Below, piece by piece: positions 4,252 to 35,004 of a DNA stretch of 64,000 nt. Below the pieces are notes generated by a model. It searched no databases and was not told the origin of the DNA. It was given only the letters and a program-made list of their open reading frames with translations. The DNA lies in NCBI GenBank assembly GCA_963748215.1, contig CAVVHS010000006.1:864001-928000 (forward strand). The letters run 5' to 3'. The DNA comes from an uncultured Gammaproteobacteria bacterium (lineage in GTDB: Bacteria; Pseudomonadota; Gammaproteobacteria; UBA9214). Positions within the stretch are counted from its first letter, which is position 1. Each line of letters starts with the position of its first letter. A program made the translations under genes and the position numbers.

Positions 4252-4544
4252 TTGCACATCCGGTGAGATAACTCACCCCCTACGCGGCTCGCGCGGCGAC
4301 GTTCTCGGCAATGGCTCCCTGCATTGCTCTCGGCTCTGGCATGGCCCAGGCCAGTCTCTCGATCGCTGCGCGATCTCACCTGCTCCTGCTTCGCTCTACC
4401 GAGTCCATCCATGGACTCGTACCTCCTGCATGGCCCAGGCCAGCCTCTCGACCCGGGCTATGCCTGTAATAATGGCTCATCTTCTCCCTGCAGTCGTGCG
4501 CCGCCTTCGGCGGCTTGTCGAACTCCCGACTGCCTGGTTCGTAG
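4252..4544 (-). repeat. tRNA-Arg(ACG) 3'-half module A, T-loop split by about 250 bp of palindromic DNA
   Basis: Degenerate acceptor end ttgcacatccggtgagat at 4252; tcgaactcccgactgcctggttcgtag at 4518-4544. Confidence 0.8.
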
Positions 4545-9668: not shown

Positions 9669-10461
9669 CCTGTGGGTGGCGAATTCCTGGTTGTCACCTG
9701 AAAACGTTCACCTAGACCGTGTGGGTGACTCAATCATAGTTATCATCTTACAAACGCTGACTTAGACTGGCGTTCAAACGCCAGATGTCAATTGATTCAG
9801 CACCTCTATAAAAAGGGAAACCTGATTCTATTGGACTTCGAACATCTATTGGACAGATAGCAGTTTCAAGGCTCAGCTACGTATTAACAAACCAAACACT
9901 TAATGACTGCTGGCCAGTCGATCACGTGGTTTTTAACCAGGTAGTCGGGTTAGCACTTAATCCTTTGTTTTCGTGAGAACTGGAAAAAGGAAGGATAAAG
10001 ACAGCAAGTAGAAAAGACCTGCAAAATCTTCGCTAACTTGCTGCTTTATAATATGGCGCGCCCGGAGAGATTACTCGGCCAAATTCTACTCGGGGCACTA
10101 CTGCCCCTCGCGCCCGTGCGGGGCCGCCGGCAAAGCCGGCGTTCTCGGCAATTGCTCCCTGCATTGCTCTACCTCGTGCATGGCCCAGGCCAGCCTCTCG
10201 ACCGGTTTCCGGTCTCACCTACTCCCTGCAGTCGTGCGCCGCTGCGCGGCTCGTCGAACTCGACCAATTAGAAACGTCGGGAGTTCGAATGCCTGGTTCG
10301 TAGTGTTATCCCTCAACCTCTCCAACCGTCTAATTTACTTAACAAATCAAGACTTTTCGCCTATATGGCGTTTAATGCGTTGATTTGCGGTTGGTTGGAC
10401 ACTGTTATTGGACAGCAAACCCTCCCCAAGACCATGTGATTATGAATTCGCCATGCACACC
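9669..10461. mobile_element. Family-A IS ends facing each other without a transposase, enclosing tRNA-Arg module B
   Basis: Left cctgtgggtggcgaattc..tcacctgaaaacg (as at 5303-5340); right gaattcgccatgcacac. Confidence 0.55.
10054..10303 (-). repeat. tRNA-Arg(ACG) 3'-half module B
   Basis: tggcgcgcccggagagatt-actc...gtcgggagttcgaat-gcctggttcgtag. Confidence 0.85.
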
Positions 10462-12145: not shown

Positions 12146-12590
12146 GTTGCGTGACGTCCAAAATCGCTCCCGGCGATTTTGTCGAACTGTGGAGCCCGAC
12201 TCAGCCCTCGCACAAGCCAAACACAAAACCGGCCTGGAGGCCGGTTTTGTGTTTGGCTTGCCCGGAGAGATTACTCGGCCAAATTCTACTCGGGGCATTA
12301 CTGCCCCTCGCGCCCCTGCGGGGCCGCCGGCAAAGCCGGCGTTCTCGGCAATTGCTCCCTGCATTGCTCTACCTCCTGCATGGCCCAGGCCAGCCTCTCG
12401 ACCGGTTTCCGGTCTCACCTCCTCCCTGCAGTCGTGCGCCGCTGCGCGGCTCGTCGAACTCAACTGAATAGATACGTCGGGAGTTCGAATACCTGCCAGT
12501 ACTTCAAACACACAGAAGCCCGCGCAAGGCGGGCTTCTGTGTGTTTGGCGCGCCCGGAGAGATTCGAACTCCCGACCGCCTGGTTCGCAG
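12146..12590 (-). repeat. tRNA-Arg(ACG) module C: partial unit, expanded unit, hairpin and unexpanded 45-bp 3' half (12546-12590)
   Basis: tggcgcgcccggagagattcgaactcccgaccgcctggttcgcag; hairpins at 12219-12254 and 12506-12546. Confidence 0.88.
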
Positions 12591-12813: not shown

Positions 12814-13092
12814 ATGACTGAAACACAGAACCGTGCAGCACCGATTAATATCCGCGCCCGCCCAACTCAGCGTAACCTGATCGACAAGGCCGCTGCGATG
12901 CTCAACAAGAATCGCTCGGACTTCATGCTGGAAGCGGCCTGCCGTGAGGCCGAGAACGTCTTGCTCGACCAGCGCCTTTTCCTGGTCGACGACAAGGCCT
13001 GGCAGGCATTCGAGACACTCATTGATGCGCCGGTCAAAGACAACCCCGCGCTGCGCAAACTGTTACATGACAAGGCCCCATGGGAGAAGTAA
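12814..13092 (+). CDS. DUF1778 RHH antitoxin (TacA/AtaR-like), copy 1
   Basis: INIRA..QRNLIDKAAA..NRSDFMLEAACREAENVLLDQRLF..KAPWE. Confidence 0.92.
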   Translation: MTETQNRAAPINIRARPTQRNLIDKAAAMLNKNRSDFMLEAACREAENVLLDQRLFLVDDKAWQAFETLIDAPVKDNPALRKLLHDKAPWEK

Positions 13093-13574
13093 CGGCGCCG
13101 GAGCCGATTACAGCGACTCACCTCATTGAGTCGTTCTCATGCGGTGTCCCGGTGCTGGATGACTGGCTTAAACGCCGCGCGCTCAAGAACGAAGTTTCCG
13201 GCGCATCCCGCACCTTCGTCATTTGCCAGGATTCGCAGGTCATCGGTTATTACACGCTGGCCACTGGCAGTATCGAACATCGCAATACACCAGGGAAAAT
13301 ACGCCGCAACATGCCGAATCCGATACCGGTGATGGTGATCGGAAGACTTGCCGTCGATCAGCGGTGGCAGCAGGCAGGCCTGGGTCGCGGCCTGCTGAAA
13401 GATGCCCTGTTGCGCACCCTGTCGGTTTCGAAACAGGCAGGCATCCGGGCATTACTGGTGCATACTCTCTCGGAAGATGCAAAGCACTTCTACACCCGTA
13501 GCGGGTTTATCGAATCTCCGCTTGATCCAATGACCTTGATTATTGCACTGCAGGATGCTGCACATTGCCTGTAG
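13080..13574 (+). CDS. GNAT acetyltransferase toxin (TacT/AtaT-like), copy 1
   Basis: FSCGVPVLDDWL, RRNMPNPIPVMVIGRLAVD, QQAGLGRGLLKDA. Confidence 0.92.
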   Translation: MGEVTAPEPITATHLIESFSCGVPVLDDWLKRRALKNEVSGASRTFVICQDSQVIGYYTLATGSIEHRNTPGKIRRNMPNPIPVMVIGRLAVDQRWQQAGLGRGLLKDALLRTLSVSKQAGIRALLVHTLSEDAKHFYTRSGFIESPLDPMTLIIALQDAAHCL

Positions 13575-13809: not shown

Positions 13810-14193
13810 ATGGCATTGACCAAGGAACAATCTTTACGCGAGGCAATCACCCGCGAAGAAGCTCAACTCGCTGAGATTGCACACAGACAGGATGAGAGCC
13901 GAAAACGGTTGGCAGCACCTAAGGAAGAGCTTGCCACCGTGGAATCACCGCATGTAGCTCCTTTCGCCTCTGCAATACACCCTGGCGCCGACGTACCAAC
14001 CACCGCCGAAGGAAAAATCTCATTATTCCGTCAACTATTCCGCGGCCGGGATGATGTATTTCCATTGCTCTGGGTAAGTACAAAGACCGGTCGGAAAGGG
14101 TATTCACCAGCCTGCAGCAATGAATGGGTACGTGGCGTCTGCGAAAAACCCCGTGTGAAAGAGAGCATTTGTCTATTTAAACCGATATTTTAG
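13810..14193 (+). pseudogene. Truncated N-terminus of a TOTE-conflict primase / helicase-type protein
   Basis: KISLFRQLFRGRDDVFP..TGRKGYSPACSNEWVRGVCEKPRVK, then homology appears to stop. Confidence 0.65.
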
Positions 14194-14390: not shown

Positions 14391-14753
14391 TTACGCAATA
14401 AGACACTCGTAGGGGATCTTCAAACCTTCATGCAATTTCCGGATCATTGTTAGCGTCAAACTTCGCTTTTTACTCAGCACCTCAGACACACGCCCACTTG
14501 TTCCGATATACGGCTCCAGATCTTTGCGCGACAAGCTGTTCTGCTCCATCAAGAACTTGATCGCTTCTATTGGGTCCGAGGCAGGAATTGCATAGTGCTC
14601 ATCTTCATATTTCTCAACGATCAGCATCAAGACATCCAGCTCATCGCCTCTTGGTGTATTGGGTTTTGCACCCCACAGCTCATCGATACGCTTTAACGCA
14701 CGGTTCAGCTCACGGTCATTTTTAACAGGCTTCAGTTTCATAATAAACCTCAA
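14391..14753 (-). CDS. higA: HigA antitoxin (HTH)
   Basis: DELDVLMLIVEKYEDEH..DPIEAIKFLMEQ..SGRVSEVLSKKRSLTLTMIRKLH. Confidence 0.9.
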   Translation of the reverse strand: MRFIMKLKPVKNDRELNRALKRIDELWGAKPNTPRGDELDVLMLIVEKYEDEHYAIPASDPIEAIKFLMEQNSLSRKDLEPYIGTSGRVSEVLSKKRSLTLTMIRKLHEGLKIPYECLIA

Positions 14754-15061
14754 ATATGTTCAATATCCTCGATCTCGTCATATTCCTTATGGGTCCCCAC
14801 AAATCGAATAAGCATTCCATGCCGAACATAATCCATAAGCACAACAATTCTGTATTTGTTACCGCATAGGTTAAATACAACACGGTTGTTCTTTAAGATG
14901 CTCGCATTACGCAAGTCAGCCTTTAATTTGTGTGGCGTATTCCATTTTGCAGTTGCACAGTAGTTGTACCACTCCGTCATTTGCTTCTTTGCATCTCTGT
15001 ATTTCGGGCTACTCTCCCAAAATTTCCGCAGCATGGACTTTGCGATCACCCTCATCAACAT
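14750..15061 (-). CDS. higB: HigB toxin
   Basis: MRVIAKSMLRKFWE..NASILKNNRVVFNLCGNKYR..IRFVGTHKEYD. Confidence 0.9.
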   Translation of the reverse strand: MLMRVIAKSMLRKFWESSPKYRDAKKQMTEWYNYCATAKWNTPHKLKADLRNASILKNNRVVFNLCGNKYRIVVLMDYVRHGMLIRFVGTHKEYDEIEDIEHI

Positions 15062-15433: not shown

Positions 15434-15610
15434 TGGCGCGCCCGGAGAGATTACTCGGGGTTTTGCCCCTCGCCCCTGCGGGGCCGCCGGCAAAGCCGGC
15501 GTTCTGCGCTCCCTGCGGTCGCTGGTCGAACTCAACTGAATAGATACGTCGGGAGTTCGAACCTCTGATGTACCGATAAACCAAAAGACCCGCGCAAGGC
15601 GGGTCTTTTG
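15434..15610 (-). repeat. tRNA-Arg(ACG) module D, cut by an IS481 remnant
   Basis: Near-identical to unit 20160-20343, including the hairpin aaaagacccgcgcaaggcgggtctttt. Confidence 0.88.
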
Positions 15611-15732
15611 TGTAGTACCTGAGAGATAGCATACAGACTATACCGGAGACATGGTTTACACATAAGGGCATTGGGGGGGATCCCGGATGCCATGGAAAGA
15701 GTGTAAACCGATGGATGAACGCCTAAAGTTTG
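15611..15732 (+). mobile_element. IS481-family left-end remnant
   Basis: tgtagt..ccggagacatggtttaca end followed by MPWKECKPMDERLKFV. Confidence 0.7.
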
Positions 15733-15961: not shown

Positions 15962-16240
15962 ATGGCTGAAACACAGAACCGCGCGGCACCGATTAATATC
16001 CGTGCCCGCGCGACGCAGCGCAACCTGATTGATAAGGCCGCTGCGATACTCAACAAGAATCGCTCGGACTTCATGCTGGAAGCGGCCTGCCGTGAGGCCG
16101 AGAACGTCTTGCTCGACCAGCGCCTCTTCCTGGTCGACGACAAGGCTCGGCAGGCATTCGAGGCACTCATCGACGCGCCGGTCAAAGACAACCCCGCGCT
16201 GCGCAAACTGTTACATGACAAGGCGCCATGGGAGAAGTAA
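15962..16240 (+). CDS. DUF1778 antitoxin, copy 2
   Basis: Near-identical to 12814-13092. Confidence 0.92.
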   Translation: MAETQNRAAPINIRARATQRNLIDKAAAILNKNRSDFMLEAACREAENVLLDQRLFLVDDKARQAFEALIDAPVKDNPALRKLLHDKAPWEK

Positions 16241-16722
16241 CGGCGCCGGAGCCAATTACCGAGACTCACCTCACTGAATCATTCTCGTGCGGCATCCCGG
16301 TGCTGGATGAATGGCTCAAACGCCGCGCACTCAAGAATGAAGTTTCCGGCGCATCCCGCACCTTCGTCATTTGCCAGGATTCGCAGGTCATCGGTTATTA
16401 CACGCTGGCCACTGGAAGTATCGAACATCGCAATGCTCCAGGAAAAATACACCGCAACATGCCGAATCCGATACCGGTGATGGTGCTCGGAAGACTCGCC
16501 GTCGATCAGCGGTGGCAGCAGGCAGGACTGGGGCGGGGTCTGCTGAAAGATGCCCTGTTACGCACCCTGTCGGTGTCGAAACAGGCAGGCATTCGGGCGT
16601 TACTGGTGCATACGCTCTCGGAAGATGCAAAGCGCTTCTACACCCGTAGCGGGTTTATCGAATCTCCACTTGACCCCATGACCTTGGTGATTGCGTTGCA
16701 GGATGCTGCACATTGCCTGTAG
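16228..16722 (+). CDS. GNAT toxin, copy 2
   Basis: Near-identical to 13080-13574. Confidence 0.92.
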   Translation: MGEVTAPEPITETHLTESFSCGIPVLDEWLKRRALKNEVSGASRTFVICQDSQVIGYYTLATGSIEHRNAPGKIHRNMPNPIPVMVLGRLAVDQRWQQAGLGRGLLKDALLRTLSVSKQAGIRALLVHTLSEDAKRFYTRSGFIESPLDPMTLVIALQDAAHCL

Positions 16723-16880
16723 CGGCGCACATGGATAAGACCGTGGAAACCTGTCGAATAATGTGGAACGCTATGCTGCGACAAGCTGTGATACGGGTAA
16801 AGCCCTACTATTTTGCATTACCTGTGCATGGCGAATTACGAGTTTGTACCATGAAAGAGGCGGGCCTTCTTGTTTATATC

Positions 16881-16989
16881 GCGCGCCCGGAGAGATTACT
16901 CGGCCAAATTCTTCTCGGGGCATTACTGCCCCTCGCACCCTGCGGGCCGCCGCCTTCGGTGGCTTGTCGAACTCAGCTGAATAGATACG
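16881..16989 (-). repeat. tRNA-Arg(ACG) module E (truncated)
   Basis: gcgcgcccggagagattactcggcc...tcgaactcagctgaatagatacg. Confidence 0.8.
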
Positions 16990-17038
16990 AGAATAAGGTG
17001 ACGGAGGCGTTTTATTCCTTCACGCATGAAAAGAAATA

Positions 17039-17088
17039 GTGTCAGAGCACATTTTCTCATTATATTCGCGGAAAATGTGCTCTGACAC
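17039..17088. repeat. 18-bp perfect inverted repeat (REP/STIR-like)
   Basis: gtgtcagagcacattttc ... gaaaatgtgctctgacac; related half copy at 17809. Confidence 0.8.
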
Positions 17089-17099
17089 CAATTAGCAGA

Positions 17100-17663
17100 T
17101 CAGAAATCGTAACGTCCGCTGATGTATGGCCCGTCCAGCTCCTGGTCGGAGGCAGCGCCTACCGCCAGGGACATCTGCGGCGCTGGATAGAAGCGTACAC
17201 CGGCCTTGATACCCAGCTCGTCGTCATCCCAGAAGTCGTTGGAGATGTACGAGATGTCACCTTCCAGGTGCAGGTTCTGCTGCAGCGCATAGCGGAGGCC
17301 GCCGCGCAGCAGCACGCCGGTGTCGTCATTGTTGCCGAACCCGAAGTCCGCATCGGCATTGATCAGCTGCACGCTGCCGACAAAATCCAACTGGTTGTTT
17401 AGCGGGGTGTGAAACTGCACACCGATGGTGAAGATGTCCAGATCGCCGTCTGCTAATGGACCGCGGTCGAAATCCATCGCGTAATAGGAACCGATAATGC
17501 CGAAGCCCTGGTTAAGATCGACGGCACCACCGATGAACAGGCCGTCGCCATCGCCCCGACCCTCGCCATAGCCGATTTCCACGTAGGTGTATCTGAAATC
17601 CCCGGCCATGGCCGGTGCGGTTGCCAGCAGTATCGCGCCGGCCAGAAGTGCCTTCTTGTTCAT
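17100..17663 (-). CDS. Outer-membrane beta-barrel protein
   Basis: Signal peptide, FRYTYVEIGY, alternating beta strands, C-terminal GRYDF. Confidence 0.85.
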   Translation of the reverse strand: MNKKALLAGAILLATAPAMAGDFRYTYVEIGYGEGRGDGDGLFIGGAVDLNQGFGIIGSYYAMDFDRGPLADGDLDIFTIGVQFHTPLNNQLDFVGSVQLINADADFGFGNNDDTGVLLRGGLRYALQQNLHLEGDISYISNDFWDDDELGIKAGVRFYPAPQMSLAVGAASDQELDGPYISGRYDF

Positions 17664-17775
17664 GTGCGTCCCTCTACGAATGGTCTGAAATGCGCGGTTT
17701 GATTAGTGTACCTTAAACCAGCAGCCGCGTCGTTTGCGAACAGGTGTGCAAAGAATAAACACTTTTATGCAAGAA

Positions 17776-17950
17776 TAAAGGGGACGGAGGAGTTATTTTC
17801 CAACTAATGGTGTCAGCACATTTTCTCCTTGATCGCGAAAAACCGACTCAAAGGGGACGGAGGATATAAAGTGGGGATTACTAAAGGGGACGGATGAGTT
17901 TTATTCATTCTGGGATTTCGCTTGAGAATATAACTCCTCCGTCCCCTATT
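17776..17950. repeat. Cluster of AAAGGGGACGGA repeats (three direct, one inverted)
   Basis: Copies at 17776, 17850, 17882 and inverted at 17927-17950; related copies at 16994, 19452, 19652 and inverted at 19771-19793. Confidence 0.8.
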
Positions 17951-19650: not shown

Positions 19651-19799
19651 TCAGGGGACGGTTACTAATTTCCACTCAATGCCCCGAACATTTACCTGTC
19701 TCGACTGAGTGCTTGTAAACGGACATCTGTTGCCGCATGGAAAATATTCCTCTGCGCCCGTAAAACTCAGATAAATAGGTATACTGTCCCCTGACTCTT

Positions 19800-20388
19800 C
19801 GCCGCCATCGCGGCTCGTCGAACGCAACCGATTAGATAAGTCGGGAGTTCGAATACCATTCCAGACCTCAAACAAACAAAAGCCCGCACAAGGCGGGGCT
19901 CGGTTGTTTTGTGCGCGACCAGAACGAGCGTAGCGAGTTCAGGAAGTACTTGATGAAACGCCGCAGGCGGTTCTGAAGTACCCGGAGAGATTACTCGGGG
20001 CTGCGCCCCTCGCCCTGCGGGCCGCCGCCGCTGCGCGTCGACGTTCTGCGCTCCCTGCGGTCGCTGGTCGAACTCAACTGAATAGACACGTCGGGAGTTC
20101 GAACCTCTGGTAAACCGATAAACCAAAAGACCCGCGCAAGGCGGGTCTTTTGGTTTATATGGCGCGCCCGGAGAGATTACTCGGGGCTTTGCCCCTCGCC
20201 CCTGCGGGGCCGCCGGCAAAGCCGGCGTTCTGCGCTCCCTGCGGTCGCTGGTCGAACTCAACTGAATAGATACGTCGGGAGTTCGAACCTCTGATGTACC
20301 GATAAACCAAAAGACCCGCGCAAGGCGGGTCTTTTGGTTTATATGGCGCGCCCGGAGAGATTCGAACTCCCGACCGCCTGGTTCGTAG
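19800..20388 (-). repeat. Tandem tRNA-Arg units of about 185 bp (F, G, H) ending in an unexpanded 45-bp 3' half (20344-20388)
   Basis: Reverse complement CTACGAACCAGGCGGTCGGGAGTTCGAATCTCTCCGGGCGCGCCA; units start at about 19974, 20160 and 20344. Confidence 0.92.
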
Positions 20389-20515
20389 TTAGCAAGTGAA
20401 TCGCTAACTTTTTGTTTCTTAAAGTAGATTACTGGAATGCCCGTTGCCCATTTTGCCTAACAAAGCAGGACGATGCATAACTGAATCCCGCAAAAGTCCC
20501 GCAAGCCATTTCATG

Positions 20516-34724: not shown

Positions 34725-34927
34725 TGGTAGGCGCGATTGGATTACTCCGGGCATGGCCCAGGCCAGTCTCTCGACCCGGGCTATGCCCGTAAAAATGGTC
34801 TCACCTTCTCCTGCCCTTCGCCCCTGCGGGGCCAGCGTCGCTGCGCTCCGCTGTTCAAATCGCTCCCGGCGATTTGGTCGAACTCCGTTCTCATCCCATC
34901 GCGGCAACCGCCACGCAACAATCAATT
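34725..34927 (-). repeat. tRNA-Val 3'-end duplication with expanded T-loop (203-bp unit)
   Basis: tggtaggcgcgattggatt-actcc...ggtcgaac. Confidence 0.85.
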
Positions 34928-35004
34928 TGGTAGGCGCGATTGGATTCGAACCAACGACCCCCACCATGTCAAGGTGGTGCTCTAACCAACTGAGCTACGC
35001 GCCT
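34928..35004 (-). tRNA. tRNA-Val(GAC)
   Basis: AGGCGCGTAGCTCAGTTGGTTAGAGCACCACCTTGACATGGTGGGGGTCGTTGGTTCGAATCCAATCGCGCCTACCA. Confidence 0.97.

Follow-up and report, generated by a model that had tools for sequence, protein, structure and literature searches.

tRNA-linked repeats (TLRs) have been known in Escherichia coli since 1978, without a known function, and are defined through an identity of 18-19 bp to the end of the upstream tRNA or 5S RNA, according to PMC8144298. The same paper describes RrA, RrB and RrF, the TLRs behind the 5S rRNA in three rrn operons of E. coli, as transcribed and processed and as binding Hfq and CsrA in vitro, and gives the 19 tRNA-linked TLRs an algorithmic CsrA-binding probability score of <0.01. 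A resemblance of rtT to BIME elements is noted in another study (Naville and Gautheret, 2010; PMC2965389). In the Rfam consensus of RtT, the tRNA-derived 3' end already pairs with a complementary segment to form the closing helix. REP/BIME sequences and derivatives of the IS200/IS605 type are small non-autonomous elements that have a fixed short target and produce no target duplication.

Here, we analyse a window (that is, the whole stretch of 64,000 nt, from an uncultured gammaproteobacterium of the UBA9214 lineage) that holds several copies of a ~184-nt unit. These units are probably TLRs, of the kind represented in Rfam by RtT and AaHKsRNA22, and of tRNA-Arg(ACG) type. The element is not new, since the family is already known, and what is added concerns the generality of an inverted T-arm and the insertion of the core. 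The preliminary description of this DNA had allowed for a family already described under another explanation, which is the case in part (TLR/RtT RNA), and the Rfam search that it proposed placed three units over the cut-off of RF02902 (AaHKsRNA22, 39.8 bits): the unit at 15434-15612 scored 41.5 bits, the core at 20178-20251 40.5 bits and the unit at 12254-12590 40.1 bits, followed by 33.4 bits for a fourth unit at 10054-10304. With RF00391 (RtT, cut-off 45 bits), the window units stay below the cut-off at 19.5-26.1 bits, and 7 other tRNA-linked places in the same genome exceed it (45.9-61.2 bits). Readings as a tmRNA-like RNA, a group I intron or a ribozyme were rejected, as no such Rfam match was found at E up to 1, and matches to microRNA families were far under their cut-offs.

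A model of the core alone, R1, was built from 22 copies. With it, 44 copies are detected in this genome and 12 in E. coli K-12 (at tyrT, proK, argVYZQ, the lysine tRNA operons and the ends of three rrn operons), and 33 of 150 other genomes of the class contain copies; the core is shared with the E. coli TLRs, as the window units score 59-66 bits, tyrT 58-61, proK 50.7, argVYZQ 33.4 and rrn 32.9. In the model hairpins 94.9% of the cells are paired, and double-sided changes occupy 166 cells versus 48.6 +/- 6.4 in shuffles and <=30 in slid controls, in an alignment fitted to the model. As for the hallmark of the family, the 18-19 bp of a tRNA 3' end, both 20160-20178 and 15434-15452 agree with the tRNA-Arg(ACG) of the genome in 19 of 19 bases. 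The Arg units of the window do not lie directly downstream of their tRNA; that placement is found for the same type of unit in a congener, where an intact tRNA-Arg(ACG) is followed by a terminator, the same inverted T-arm, a linker and the core, and for the tRNA-Val unit of the window. Family membership, architecture and conserved hairpins are shown for these units. As for transcription, assembled metatranscriptome contigs (four runs) cover 20067-20235 and 20109-20235 in two runs of two studies, where DNA carry-over is possible and strand and ends are invisible; most RNA contigs cover 20346-20388 only and continue into the intact tRNA-Arg of other organisms.

In the tRNA sense (- strand), a unit contains first a terminator hairpin and then an inverted variable loop plus T-arm; a short linker leads to GAGTTCGA, the 5' half of a T-arm, after which come the core of 74 nt and the last 19 nt of the tRNA, comprising the remaining T-loop, the 3' strands of T-stem and acceptor stem, and CCA. 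The motif of the preliminary description is the antisense view of the 5' part. For example, the unit that ends at 20160 is preceded by a 45-nt 3' half of tRNA-Arg(ACG), from anticodon loop to CCA (20344-20388, - strand), an attachment-site-like remnant and no gene: all 45 nt are identical by eye to positions 33-77 of the intact tRNA on contig C5, and neither ARAGORN nor Rfam calls a tRNA there. Between this half and the unit stands a G+C-rich hairpin with T and A runs on both sides, terminator-like in both directions (20302-20342, inverted repeat I2), which in the computed fold lies at the tip of the long hairpin. Next come the variable loop and T-arm of tRNA-Arg(ACG) in inverted copy (20274-20293, + strand, 18 of 19 bases identical), for which the cognate tRNA ranks 2nd of 43 with a tied top score; a 14-nt linker (20260-20273, + strand), D-arm-like in this lineage only; and the split T-arm 5' half (20252-20259, - strand), directly against the core. 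The core (20178-20251, - strand) has hairpins Hb, Hc and Hd and the conserved GAACG...GAG...GAGTA, scores 66.4 bits with R1 and has compensatory changes in its hairpins, and it leads into the 19-nt copy of the tRNA-Arg(ACG) 3' end (AATCTCTCCGGGCGCGCCA; 20160-20178, - strand).

The other Arg-type units, all on the - strand, vary on this plan. The second unit of the tandem (19975-20158; terminator hairpin 20118-20158, inverted T-arm 20090-20109, linker 20076-20089, core 19992-20067) has a tRNA-end block that ends after 12 nt, and scores 59.4 bits with R1 and, as a weak match, 26.1 bits with RtT; its repeat copy D1 (19975-20152) shows 73% identity ungapped and 91% over 184 nt with gaps (blastn). 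A truncated unit at 19799-19911 retains the inverted T-arm, a variant linker that is not D-arm-like, and the terminator hairpin, and another at 16866-16990 has a mutated tRNA-end block, a short core and the split T-arm half, lacks the inverted T-arm, and carries the most D-arm-like linker of all. The full unit at 15434-15612 is 99% identical to 20159-20336 (R1, 65.1 bits). The unit at 12254-12590 includes a nested dispersed repeat of ~100 nt, the terminator hairpin and a second tRNA-Arg 3' half (12546-12590), whose anticodon loop is altered to CTGCGAA. The nested repeat recurs in the unit at 10054-10304, where the inverted T-arm is fused straight to an anticodon-stem remnant (10291-10304), as if the intervening hairpin had been deleted. 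One TLR is in its native place: 34725-34927 (- strand), with a nested dispersed repeat in hairpin Hd, lies directly downstream of the intact tRNA-Val(GAC) at 34928-35004 and has the same build as the Arg-type units. The latter stand behind no intact tRNA within the window, the intact tRNA-Arg(ACG) being on C5 and only 3' halves being here; they are displaced relics.

The motif from which this work started, CTCAACTGAATAGATAC at 20257-20273 followed by GTCGGGAGTTCGAACCTCT at 20274-20292 on the + strand, is real and not due to chance. It runs opposite to the tRNA-Arg 3' half at 20344-20388, with the placing, strand and orientation that had been stated, and the copies listed earlier are the seven members of a 42-nt family that share its first part (at 10235, 12435, 15507, 16948, 19799, 20049 and 20233). 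With at most one mismatch, GTCGGGAGTTCGAA occurs 9 times within the window versus 0.04 expected, a count of at least 9 being reached in 0 of 100 shuffles: six occurrences are on the + strand (10276, 12476, 15548, 19840, 20090, 20274) and three on the - strand, at 12563 and 20361 in the tRNA halves and, with 1 mismatch, at 4517. The copy at 16972 has only the first part, the T-arm part being cut off at 16990. ARAGORN and Rfam find no intact tRNA-Arg within the window, and the single tRNA-Arg(ACG) of the whole genome is on contig C5, c[2666-2742]. Its D-arm is CTCAGCTGGATAGAGTAC, in agreement with the usual D-arm given in the preliminary description, and the assignment of the second part to the T-arm is borne out by 18 of 19 identical bases at 20274-20292.

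The D-arm part needs qualification. Compared with tRNA-Arg(ACG), 20257-20273 agrees in 15 of 17 letters with 1 gap, and the copy at 16972 in 16 of 17. When a 22-nt + strand segment was scored against the 5' part of the tRNA, the observed score was reached by 0-1 of 2000 shuffles in five of the seven copies, and the copies at 10254 and 19818 were no better than shuffles (1517 and 1561 of 2000); for the 14-nt linker at 20260-20273 the shuffle p is about 2e-4. It should be noted that CTC, the first three letters of the "D-arm", belongs to the octamer TCGAACTC at 20252-20259, which is the antisense of the split T-arm half adjoining the core. Neither ARAGORN nor Rfam calls a tRNA gene or pseudogene on the + strand here, and no acceptor-like sequence is present on either side of the motif.

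Then, how general are the two parts? TLRs in general have an inverted T-arm, and it is specific to the cognate tRNA. In this genome that tRNA takes rank 1-2 among 43 for 10 of 11 units; in 12 other genomes the match is significant for 13 of 13 units, and E. coli tyrT likewise carries a cognate inverted T-arm. The preliminary description had proposed to test whether the antisense part co-varies with its tRNA. The T-arm portion does so; the D-arm portion does not, being absent from the Arg(ACG) units of the congener and of four further genomes, as well as from units of the Ser, Glu and Gln types. Only the Arg copies of this genome show the D-arm likeness: it is absent in the congener (L065) and in 11 other units, and 31-nt and 22-nt patterns of the D-arm/T-arm junction gave 0 matches each in 185,579 species genomes, a collection that does not include the genome of the window. 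A general D-arm ancestry of the linker was rejected after a softer alignment test on 11 units outside the Arg copies of this genome (Fisher p = 0.79). The D-arm-like linker is left without explanation by the TLR and insertion model. The comparison shows that the complementary 5' arm of the family corresponds to an inverted T-arm, one that tracks its cognate tRNA even between distant genomes.

The position of the core points to a possible origin of the family. As a new point, the conserved core of 70-95 nt sits exactly within a T-loop, as GGTTCGA/core/ATCC (slashes mark the junctions), and 11 of the 44 cores of this genome lie within otherwise unbroken sense tRNA sequence. One precise insertion can be seen together with its empty site. 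At C6:837421-837491, a 71-nt core lies inside a gene fragment of an IS91-type Y2_Tnp, where the pieces on either side align to positions 85-146 and 151-179 of the Pfam profile, which continues across the site; the empty paralog at C6:845098-845177 has the uninterrupted GGTTCGA/AAATGACG, which encodes THVIFEPLDF. The filled copy (C6:837381-837531) differs from it by exactly the 71-nt core, with, by eye, 1 substitution per 40-nt flank, as expected of a small insertion element with a specific target. This is the one clean filled/empty pair, in addition to one nested copy read by eye. Three cores of this genome are found within the D-loop of a tRNA-Ser, where GGTCGA/ or GGTTGA/ precedes them. Of 82 cores examined, 47 have TTCGA at their left junction, 21 have a related pentamer and 14 have no T-loop-like pentamer there, some of the last being broken by a nested repeat or runs of N; in the 5S-linked TLR of E. 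coli the site is GTAGGA/, not TTCGA/.

The core is most plausibly a small insertion element that lands at GGTTCGA/A without target duplication. In our estimate the chances are about even that the TLR core is, or was, a small site-specific mobile element targeting T-loop DNA (GGTTCGA/A), as well as look-alikes such as tRNA-Ser D-loops; all TLRs would then have arisen by such insertion. Insertion within the T-loop would explain the hallmark 18-19-nt tRNA end of the family: if true, landing in spare 3' parts of tRNAs would account for the exact ends noted since 1978, for the gathering of cores in tRNA halves left by islands, and for an RNA that is a tRNA-like acceptor/T-stem helix with extra hairpins and a CCA end, and the inverted T-arm would help to make a landed copy a stable RNA. 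The insertion model alone gives no account of the inverted T-arm upstream. No enzyme moving the core was found among the Y1 transposases near the copies: of the five Y1_Tnp matches of this genome, the two nearest to the cores, identical genes ~1.1 kb from two tRNA-Lys-type copies, are flanked by unrelated repeats (GGGGACAGACCACG), and a link to a Y1 (REP-associated) transposase was rejected. TLR mobility is untreated in the literature found using the term, and Rudd 1999 and the papers of 1978-1991, beyond that literature, may already discuss the origin.

What the inverted T-arm does as RNA can be approached through its pairing options. In a sense transcript three partners are available to it: the split half of the T-arm (UCGAACUC : GAGUUCGA), the 3' end derived from the tRNA, a pairing that closes the Rfam RtT model, and, across the terminator, the T-arm of an upstream tRNA; such RNA pairings may well matter. 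The third option underlies a reading, the second one offered in the preliminary description, in which, on a read-through transcript, the T-arm-complementary segment would fold back over the terminator hairpin, hide the T-arm and 3' end of the tRNA, and modulate precursor processing or termination. The predicted fold-back does appear in silico, where the long hairpin is strongly favoured: tRNA half, terminator hairpin and inverted arm give -73.3 kcal/mol (z = -9.1), and the intact tRNA-Arg of the congener with its downstream part gives -82.3 kcal/mol (z = -7.9), the cloverleaf being broken. The complementarity also follows the cognate tRNA. However, it equally suits the tRNA-derived 3' end of the unit itself, so that covariation cannot separate the two partners. 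Besides, the arm is placed behind a terminator, tRNAs fold during synthesis, no intact tRNA stands upstream of the Arg units of the window, the D-arm part required by the earlier model is lineage-specific, and E. coli tyrT has ~60 nt without a hairpin between tRNA and arm. We regard such an anti-tRNA role as unlikely.

The displacement of the Arg units could also be traced to islands. The displaced tRNA-Arg 3' ends would then stem from successive integrations at the anticodon loop, and the inverted stretch would be a decayed tRNA fragment without a role. Three tRNA-Arg remnants (10291-10304, 12546-12590 and 20344-20388) do begin at the anticodon loop, on C5 an integrase fragment comes after the intact tRNA, remnants of both tRNA-Arg and tRNA-Lys have the direct motif TGCGGGAnTTTTGCGGGA beside them in a manner resembling arm-type sites, and the D-arm likeness is significant in this lineage only. 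Such a history accounts for the scatter of the units but not for their build, since units with an inverted T-arm sit behind intact tRNAs without an island, the arm matches its cognate tRNA across many genomes, and the core hairpins are maintained by compensatory changes; as an explanation of the units it is quite improbable. Tandem islands with one integrase per unit were rejected, as no integrases are present in the arrays, and are retained only to explain the tRNA halves.

The neighbours of the units are toxin-antitoxin and other small modules (TacA/GNAT pairs, HigB/HTH, OMP, methyltransferase), and this setting, together with the imperfect palindromes of the units and the arrays of similar units that the Arg, Lys and Pro types form over 60-90 kb, recalls attC sites; the units would then bound gene cassettes and be substrates, folded and single-stranded, for an integron-like integrase. 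This attC-like reading, offered in the preliminary description, finds no support near the units: there are 4 Phage_integrase matches genome-wide, 0 near the Arg, Lys and Pro arrays and none integron-like by position. In addition, single units of the same kind, without cassettes, stand directly behind ordinary tRNA genes here, in other genomes and in E. coli, and the array arose partly by segmental duplication (a 300-nt repeat of 86% identity at a spacing of about 3.1 kb), which makes the reading very improbable. Finally, a chance likeness is scarcely credible and is refuted for the T-arm part: a reverse-complemented hairpin retains its stems, the near-palindromic T-loop TTCGAA is self-complementary, so that some likeness is built in, and two of the seven linker copies are no better than shuffles, but the T-stem G-U pair and the flanking GTC fix the inverted orientation, and the excess of matches (9 vs 0.04), the rank of the cognate tRNA (1-2 of 43) and the shuffle tests all speak against chance.

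Taken as TLRs of tRNA-Arg(ACG) type, the window units by themselves are ordinary members of a repeat family known for more than 40 years. The genome is unusually rich in cores (44 copies) and offers a clean filled/empty pair at a T-loop-like heptamer, and the insertion reading, if correct, would make the origin of the family testable. Among the known systems, integron attC sites are likewise imperfect palindromes between small gene modules, whereas the window units lack an integron integrase, are built on a tRNA 3' end and occur singly behind ordinary tRNAs. With elements of the IS200/IS605 type and REP/BIME, the core shares its richness in hairpins, its length of 70-95 nt, its one orientation to the target and its precise insertion 3' of a fixed pentamer without duplication; it differs in that a linked transposase was not found, the Y1 genes nearby having repeats of their own, and in that the target is a T-loop-coding heptamer. 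AaHKsRNA22 (RF02902, Aggregatibacter sRNA 22), of which a literature search found no paper that names it, is known as an sRNA candidate only. Its whole model is matched by the core just over the cut-off, with Hb, Hc and the GAG...GAGUA frame kept, and it has no tRNA-derived end.

RrA, RrB and RrF of E. coli belong to the same core subfamily as the window units (CAAATCC..GGATTTGAACG...). As given in PMC8144298, their 3' end repeats the final 18 nt of the stable RNA upstream, and they lie between two terminators; they are 5S-linked with the junction GTAGGA/, whereas the window units are of tRNA type with TTCGA/. The closest likeness is to the TLRs of E. coli K-12 at tyrT, the 178-bp repeats with rttR (RF00391, RtT). 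There, as here, copies stand in tandem, the 3' 18-19 nt are a tRNA 3' end, and the order is the same: a segment complementary to the 3' strand of T-stem and acceptor, GGTTCGA, the core with GAACG...GAG...GAGTA, and ATCC with the tRNA end. In contrast to tyrT/rttR, the window units are of tRNA-Arg(ACG) type in an unrelated genome of 60% G+C, carry the extra 14-nt D-arm-like linker, keep GTTCGAA in the T-loop of the inverted arm where tyrT/rttR has ATGAGAA, score under the RtT gathering score, and are displaced from their intact tRNA. The core itself is common by descent, with R1 scores of 58-61 bits at tyrT and 66 bits here.

The inverted tRNA-Arg motif in the window is a real, non-random feature, as had been claimed in the preliminary description. 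On the + strand, it is composed of a D-arm-like first part (CTCAACTGAATAGATAC, 20257-20273) and a T-arm-like second part (GTCGGGAGTTCGAACCTCT, 20274-20292), followed by a terminator-like hairpin (20302-20342), beyond which a 45-nt tRNA-Arg 3' half starting at the anticodon loop is located on the - strand (20344-20388). No tRNA-Arg gene was found in the window. The genome contains 43 tRNA genes and one tmRNA gene, and its single tRNA-Arg(ACG) gene is located on contig C5, adjoining an integrase fragment; the D-arm sequence given in the preliminary description is indeed the D-arm of this tRNA. The + strand motif is identical to the variable loop and T-arm of tRNA-Arg(ACG) at 18 of 19 bases and, when one gap is allowed, matches its D-arm at 15 of 17 letters. 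The first part lies within a 42-nt family with seven copies in the window, and GTCGGGAGTTCGAA occurs nine times there at no more than one mismatch (six on the + strand), versus a chance expectation of 0.04, while nine occurrences were reached in 0 of 100 shuffles. The D-arm score was reached by 0-1 of 2000 shuffles for five of the seven copies, and was matched by 1517 and 1561 of 2000 for those at 10254 and 19818, respectively. The inverted orientation is genuine rather than the self-symmetry of a hairpin, because of the T-stem G-U pair and the flanking GTC. At 10276-10304, the inverted T-arm directly abuts the anticodon stem in antisense (GTCGGGAGTTCGAAT-G-CCTGGTTCGTAG), which looks as if the entire hairpin that separates inverted arm and tRNA half, kept at 12476-12590, had been deleted.

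The feature is a member of the known family of tRNA-linked repeats (TLRs). Each unit of about 184 nt contains a conserved hairpin core of 70-95 nt, an inverted copy of the tRNA variable loop and T-arm (the inverted arm) and a short linker. The match to the RtT family of Rfam is weak (26.1 bits versus the cut-off of 45), and the middle part of each of three units was assigned to RF02902 (AaHKsRNA22), barely over the cut-off. The RtT cut-off was passed at seven tRNA-linked places of the genome, and like units were found behind its Arg-CCG, Ser-CGA (three in tandem), Ser-GGA, Ser-TGA, Ser-GCT, Gln-TTG, Gln-CTG and Glu-TTC genes. A core model (R1), built from an alignment of 22 cores (A1), identified 44 copies in the genome, including that behind the intact tRNA-Val(GAC) of the window at 34725-34927, as well as 12 in E. 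coli K-12; when 150 other genomes were sampled from the same class, one per family, 33 had copies. In 83 R1 matches (79 distinct), standard pairs occupy 94.9% of the pair cells; both-side changes were counted in 166 cells, compared with 48.6 +/- 6.4 for shuffles and a maximum of 30 with the partners slid, a count biased towards structure because the alignment was fitted to R1.

The expected covariation of the antisense part with the cognate tRNA was borne out for the T-arm part and failed for the D-arm part. In 11 TLR-type units of the genome, the 60 nt preceding the core were reverse-complemented and compared with all 43 tRNAs. Against tRNA 3' halves, the cognate ranked first or second in 10 of 11 units (seventh for Ser-CGA); against 5' halves, the Arg units of the window were the only ones in which it came top, and it ranked from 3 to 41 in the other eight. 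Elsewhere, 13 units located next to their cognate tRNA in 12 other genomes were tested, and their T-arm likeness exceeded that of shuffles in all 13 (0/1000 in nine; 3, 4, 12 and 15/1000 in the rest), and the 5'-half likeness was not above shuffles in 12, the one exception being a match of GGTCGAAC to a tRNA-Ser D-loop. When the linkers alone were considered in a softer test, p was about 2e-4 for both the main variant in the window and that at 16972, and the Fisher combined p for D-arm likeness was 0.79 over 11 units excluding the genome's Arg copies. In a congener (L065), the intact tRNA-Ser(GCT)-tRNA-Arg(ACG) pair has behind it, in this order, a terminator, the inverted arm CAGAGGTTCGAACTCCCGAC, which is the same as in the window units, the linker TTATACATGGTT and the core. 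This locus is the native place of the Arg(ACG) unit, and its linker is not D-arm-like. Therefore, from the rank, shuffle, linker and L065 tests, the T-arm part co-varies with the tRNA, whereas the D-arm part is lineage-specific. The first three letters of the latter are antisense to the split T-arm half, and the D-arm-like linker may be due to a recent conversion from a tRNA, or to lucky drift.

The core separates the 5' half of the T-loop from its 3' half (GGTTCGA/C...GAGTA/ATCC), and downstream of ATCC come the 3' strands of the T-stem and of the acceptor stem, and then CCA. As a new lead, the TLR core may be a precise insertion into T-loop-like DNA. The 71-nt core at 837421-837491 of contig C6 is located inside an IS91-type transposase gene fragment, where the piece on one side covers positions 85-146 of Pfam Y2_Tnp (residues 64-126 of 128) and that on the other side positions 151-179 (residues 2-31); with the split codon counted, the profile is continuous without gap across the core. 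A paralog 8 kb off is uninterrupted (...CCAGCGGTTCGAAAATGACG..., encoding THVIFEPLDF), while the filled copy reads ...GGCTCGA/core/ACATGACG...; the site is a T-loop-like heptamer, with no duplication and one base difference per flank. A second case was identified by eye alone: a core in opposite orientation, nested within another TLR (genome L050). No mover of the core was found; Y1 transposase genes near two Lys-type copies were rejected, being flanked by their own repeats. These are two identical copies of a REP-associated tyrosine transposase-like gene (Y1_Tnp), at 315959-316801 and 333292-334134 of contig C9, and are bounded by inverted GGGGACAGACCACG repeats; a similar GGGGACGGAGG repeat family is present in the window at 16993-17906.

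Classed by flanking sequence, 20 of the genome's 44 cores have the TLR build with the inverted arm upstream, 11 interrupt otherwise continuous sense tRNA sequence (eight tRNA-Lys halves, one Pro half, one Arg half and one full pseudo-tRNA-Gln), three are located in tRNA-Ser D-loops after GGTCGA or GGTTGA, six have a left flank interrupted by a nested dispersed repeat, one lies within a protein gene and three are unclear. The left junction was compared across 82 cores, drawn from the genome, 28 others of its class, one congener and E. coli: 47 have TTCGA there, 21 have a related pentamer and 14 have neither, the pentamers being picked by script with four rows hand-corrected where an earlier pentamer had been taken. 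The target rule is not strict, because the core of the E. coli 5S-linked TLR is located behind GTAGGA, within a copy of the 5S end. The full-length pseudo-tRNA-Gln, with the core in its T-loop and the acceptor 3' strand lost, is located at 225180-225253 of contig C8, just upstream of the intact tRNA-Gln(TTG); the same arrangement occurs in L037, L047 and L053, three other genomes that belong to different families, and L054 has the same pseudo-tRNA-Gln with a core, no tRNA gene being called in that locus. Similarly, at least six genomes have, upstream of intact tRNA-Ser genes, 5' fragments of tRNA-Ser whose D-loop holds a core. At locus L035 (genome G098), the core 3' flank GTTCCCGCCGCCTCCACCA resembles, by eye, the tmRNA end, which suggests that TLRs could be linked to ssrA too. 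A G+C-rich dispersed repeat of about 100 nt (GGCAATTGCTCCCTGCATTGC...GGCCAGCCTCTCGACCGG...) is nested in several TLR units including the tRNA-Val unit; it occurs in the window at 10140-10235, 12340-12435 and 34751-34812, at 153000-153190 of contig C2 and at about 100 other places on all nine contigs.

The window contains three tRNA-Arg remnants between 10 and 20.4 kb, each starting at the anticodon loop, together with two TacA-antitoxin/GNAT-acetyltransferase pairs (12814-13574 and 15962-16722), a HigB-like toxin with its HTH partner (14391-15061), a short TOTE-type primase-domain fragment (13810-14193), an OMP and a methyltransferase, and IS remnants lie just past 20.6 kb. The two TacA/GNAT pairs belong to a duplicated segment with a promoter-side repeat of 86% identity, and segmental duplication is shown by a 300-nt repeat that is 86% identical at a spacing of about 3.1 kb. 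Further Arg-type units are found on the contig as far as 77 kb upstream, and similar arrays exist for tRNA-Pro(GGG) and for tRNA-Lys (8 copies, 90 kb), the Lys copies having about 150 nt of upstream and 180-270 nt of downstream sequence in common. A direct motif, TGCGGGAnTTTTGCGGGA, is present on both sides of each of the eight tRNA-Lys halves (C9, 317923-408680), next to the tRNA half of the window (at about 20480-20510 on the other strand) and just behind the intact tRNA-Arg(ACG) on C5. Around the tRNA-Arg and tRNA-Lys remnants, these motifs resemble the arm-type sites of a single integrative-element family, and the arrangement looks like integrative-element junctions. We read the scatter of units as old integrations and rearrangements that carried native units along. 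Alternatively, the units themselves might conceivably recombine. The attC-like recombination structure suggested in the preliminary description found no support, with no integrase gene in the 60-90-kb arrays.

In the tRNA-sense RNA, the inverted arm could pair with three alternative partners. The first would be the split T-arm half, with 8 bp (UCGAACUC : GAGUUCGA); the second, as in the RtT model, the tRNA-derived 3' end, a pairing that is weak (4-5 bp) in the window units; and the third the T-arm of the upstream tRNA or tRNA half, which would form a long hairpin across the terminator. Covariation is unable to separate these partners because they share the same sequence. The fold-back of the inverted arm onto the tRNA, as first proposed, is predicted by computation, with -73.3 kcal/mol (z = -9.1) for the window and -82.3 kcal/mol (z = -7.9) for the intact tRNA of the congener, the cloverleaf of which is lost in silico. 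The minimum-energy fold of the unit alone (-64.4 kcal/mol, z = -2.8) has a different closing helix, in which the core 5'-end segment GCG.CCG.AGGGA pairs with the tRNA end UCUCU.CGG.CGC, leaving GCCA unpaired; this predicted fold resembles an acceptor/T-stem helix bearing the core hairpins.

TLRs were first observed in 1978, number 22 across ten loci in E. coli K-12, and are defined by 18-19 bp that are identical to the 3' terminus of the tRNA or 5S rRNA located upstream (PMC8144298). According to the same source, they have no known function, an early link to the stringent response having been withdrawn, and the three 5S-linked TLRs bind Hfq and CsrA in vitro (PMC8144298). Northern signals from RtT members have been described in Actinobacillus pleuropneumoniae (PMC4986893), RtT is annotated with level changes in Thioalkalivibrio (PMC8092127), and the RtT structure, with a tandem GA motif, is supported by covariation (PMC7657543). 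In the Rfam RtT consensus, the closing helix is formed by a 5' segment (GgGaaGG) with the tRNA-derived 3' end (CCuuCcC), and in the tyrT-tyrV-rttR region of E. coli, the order of parts is the same as in the window-type units.
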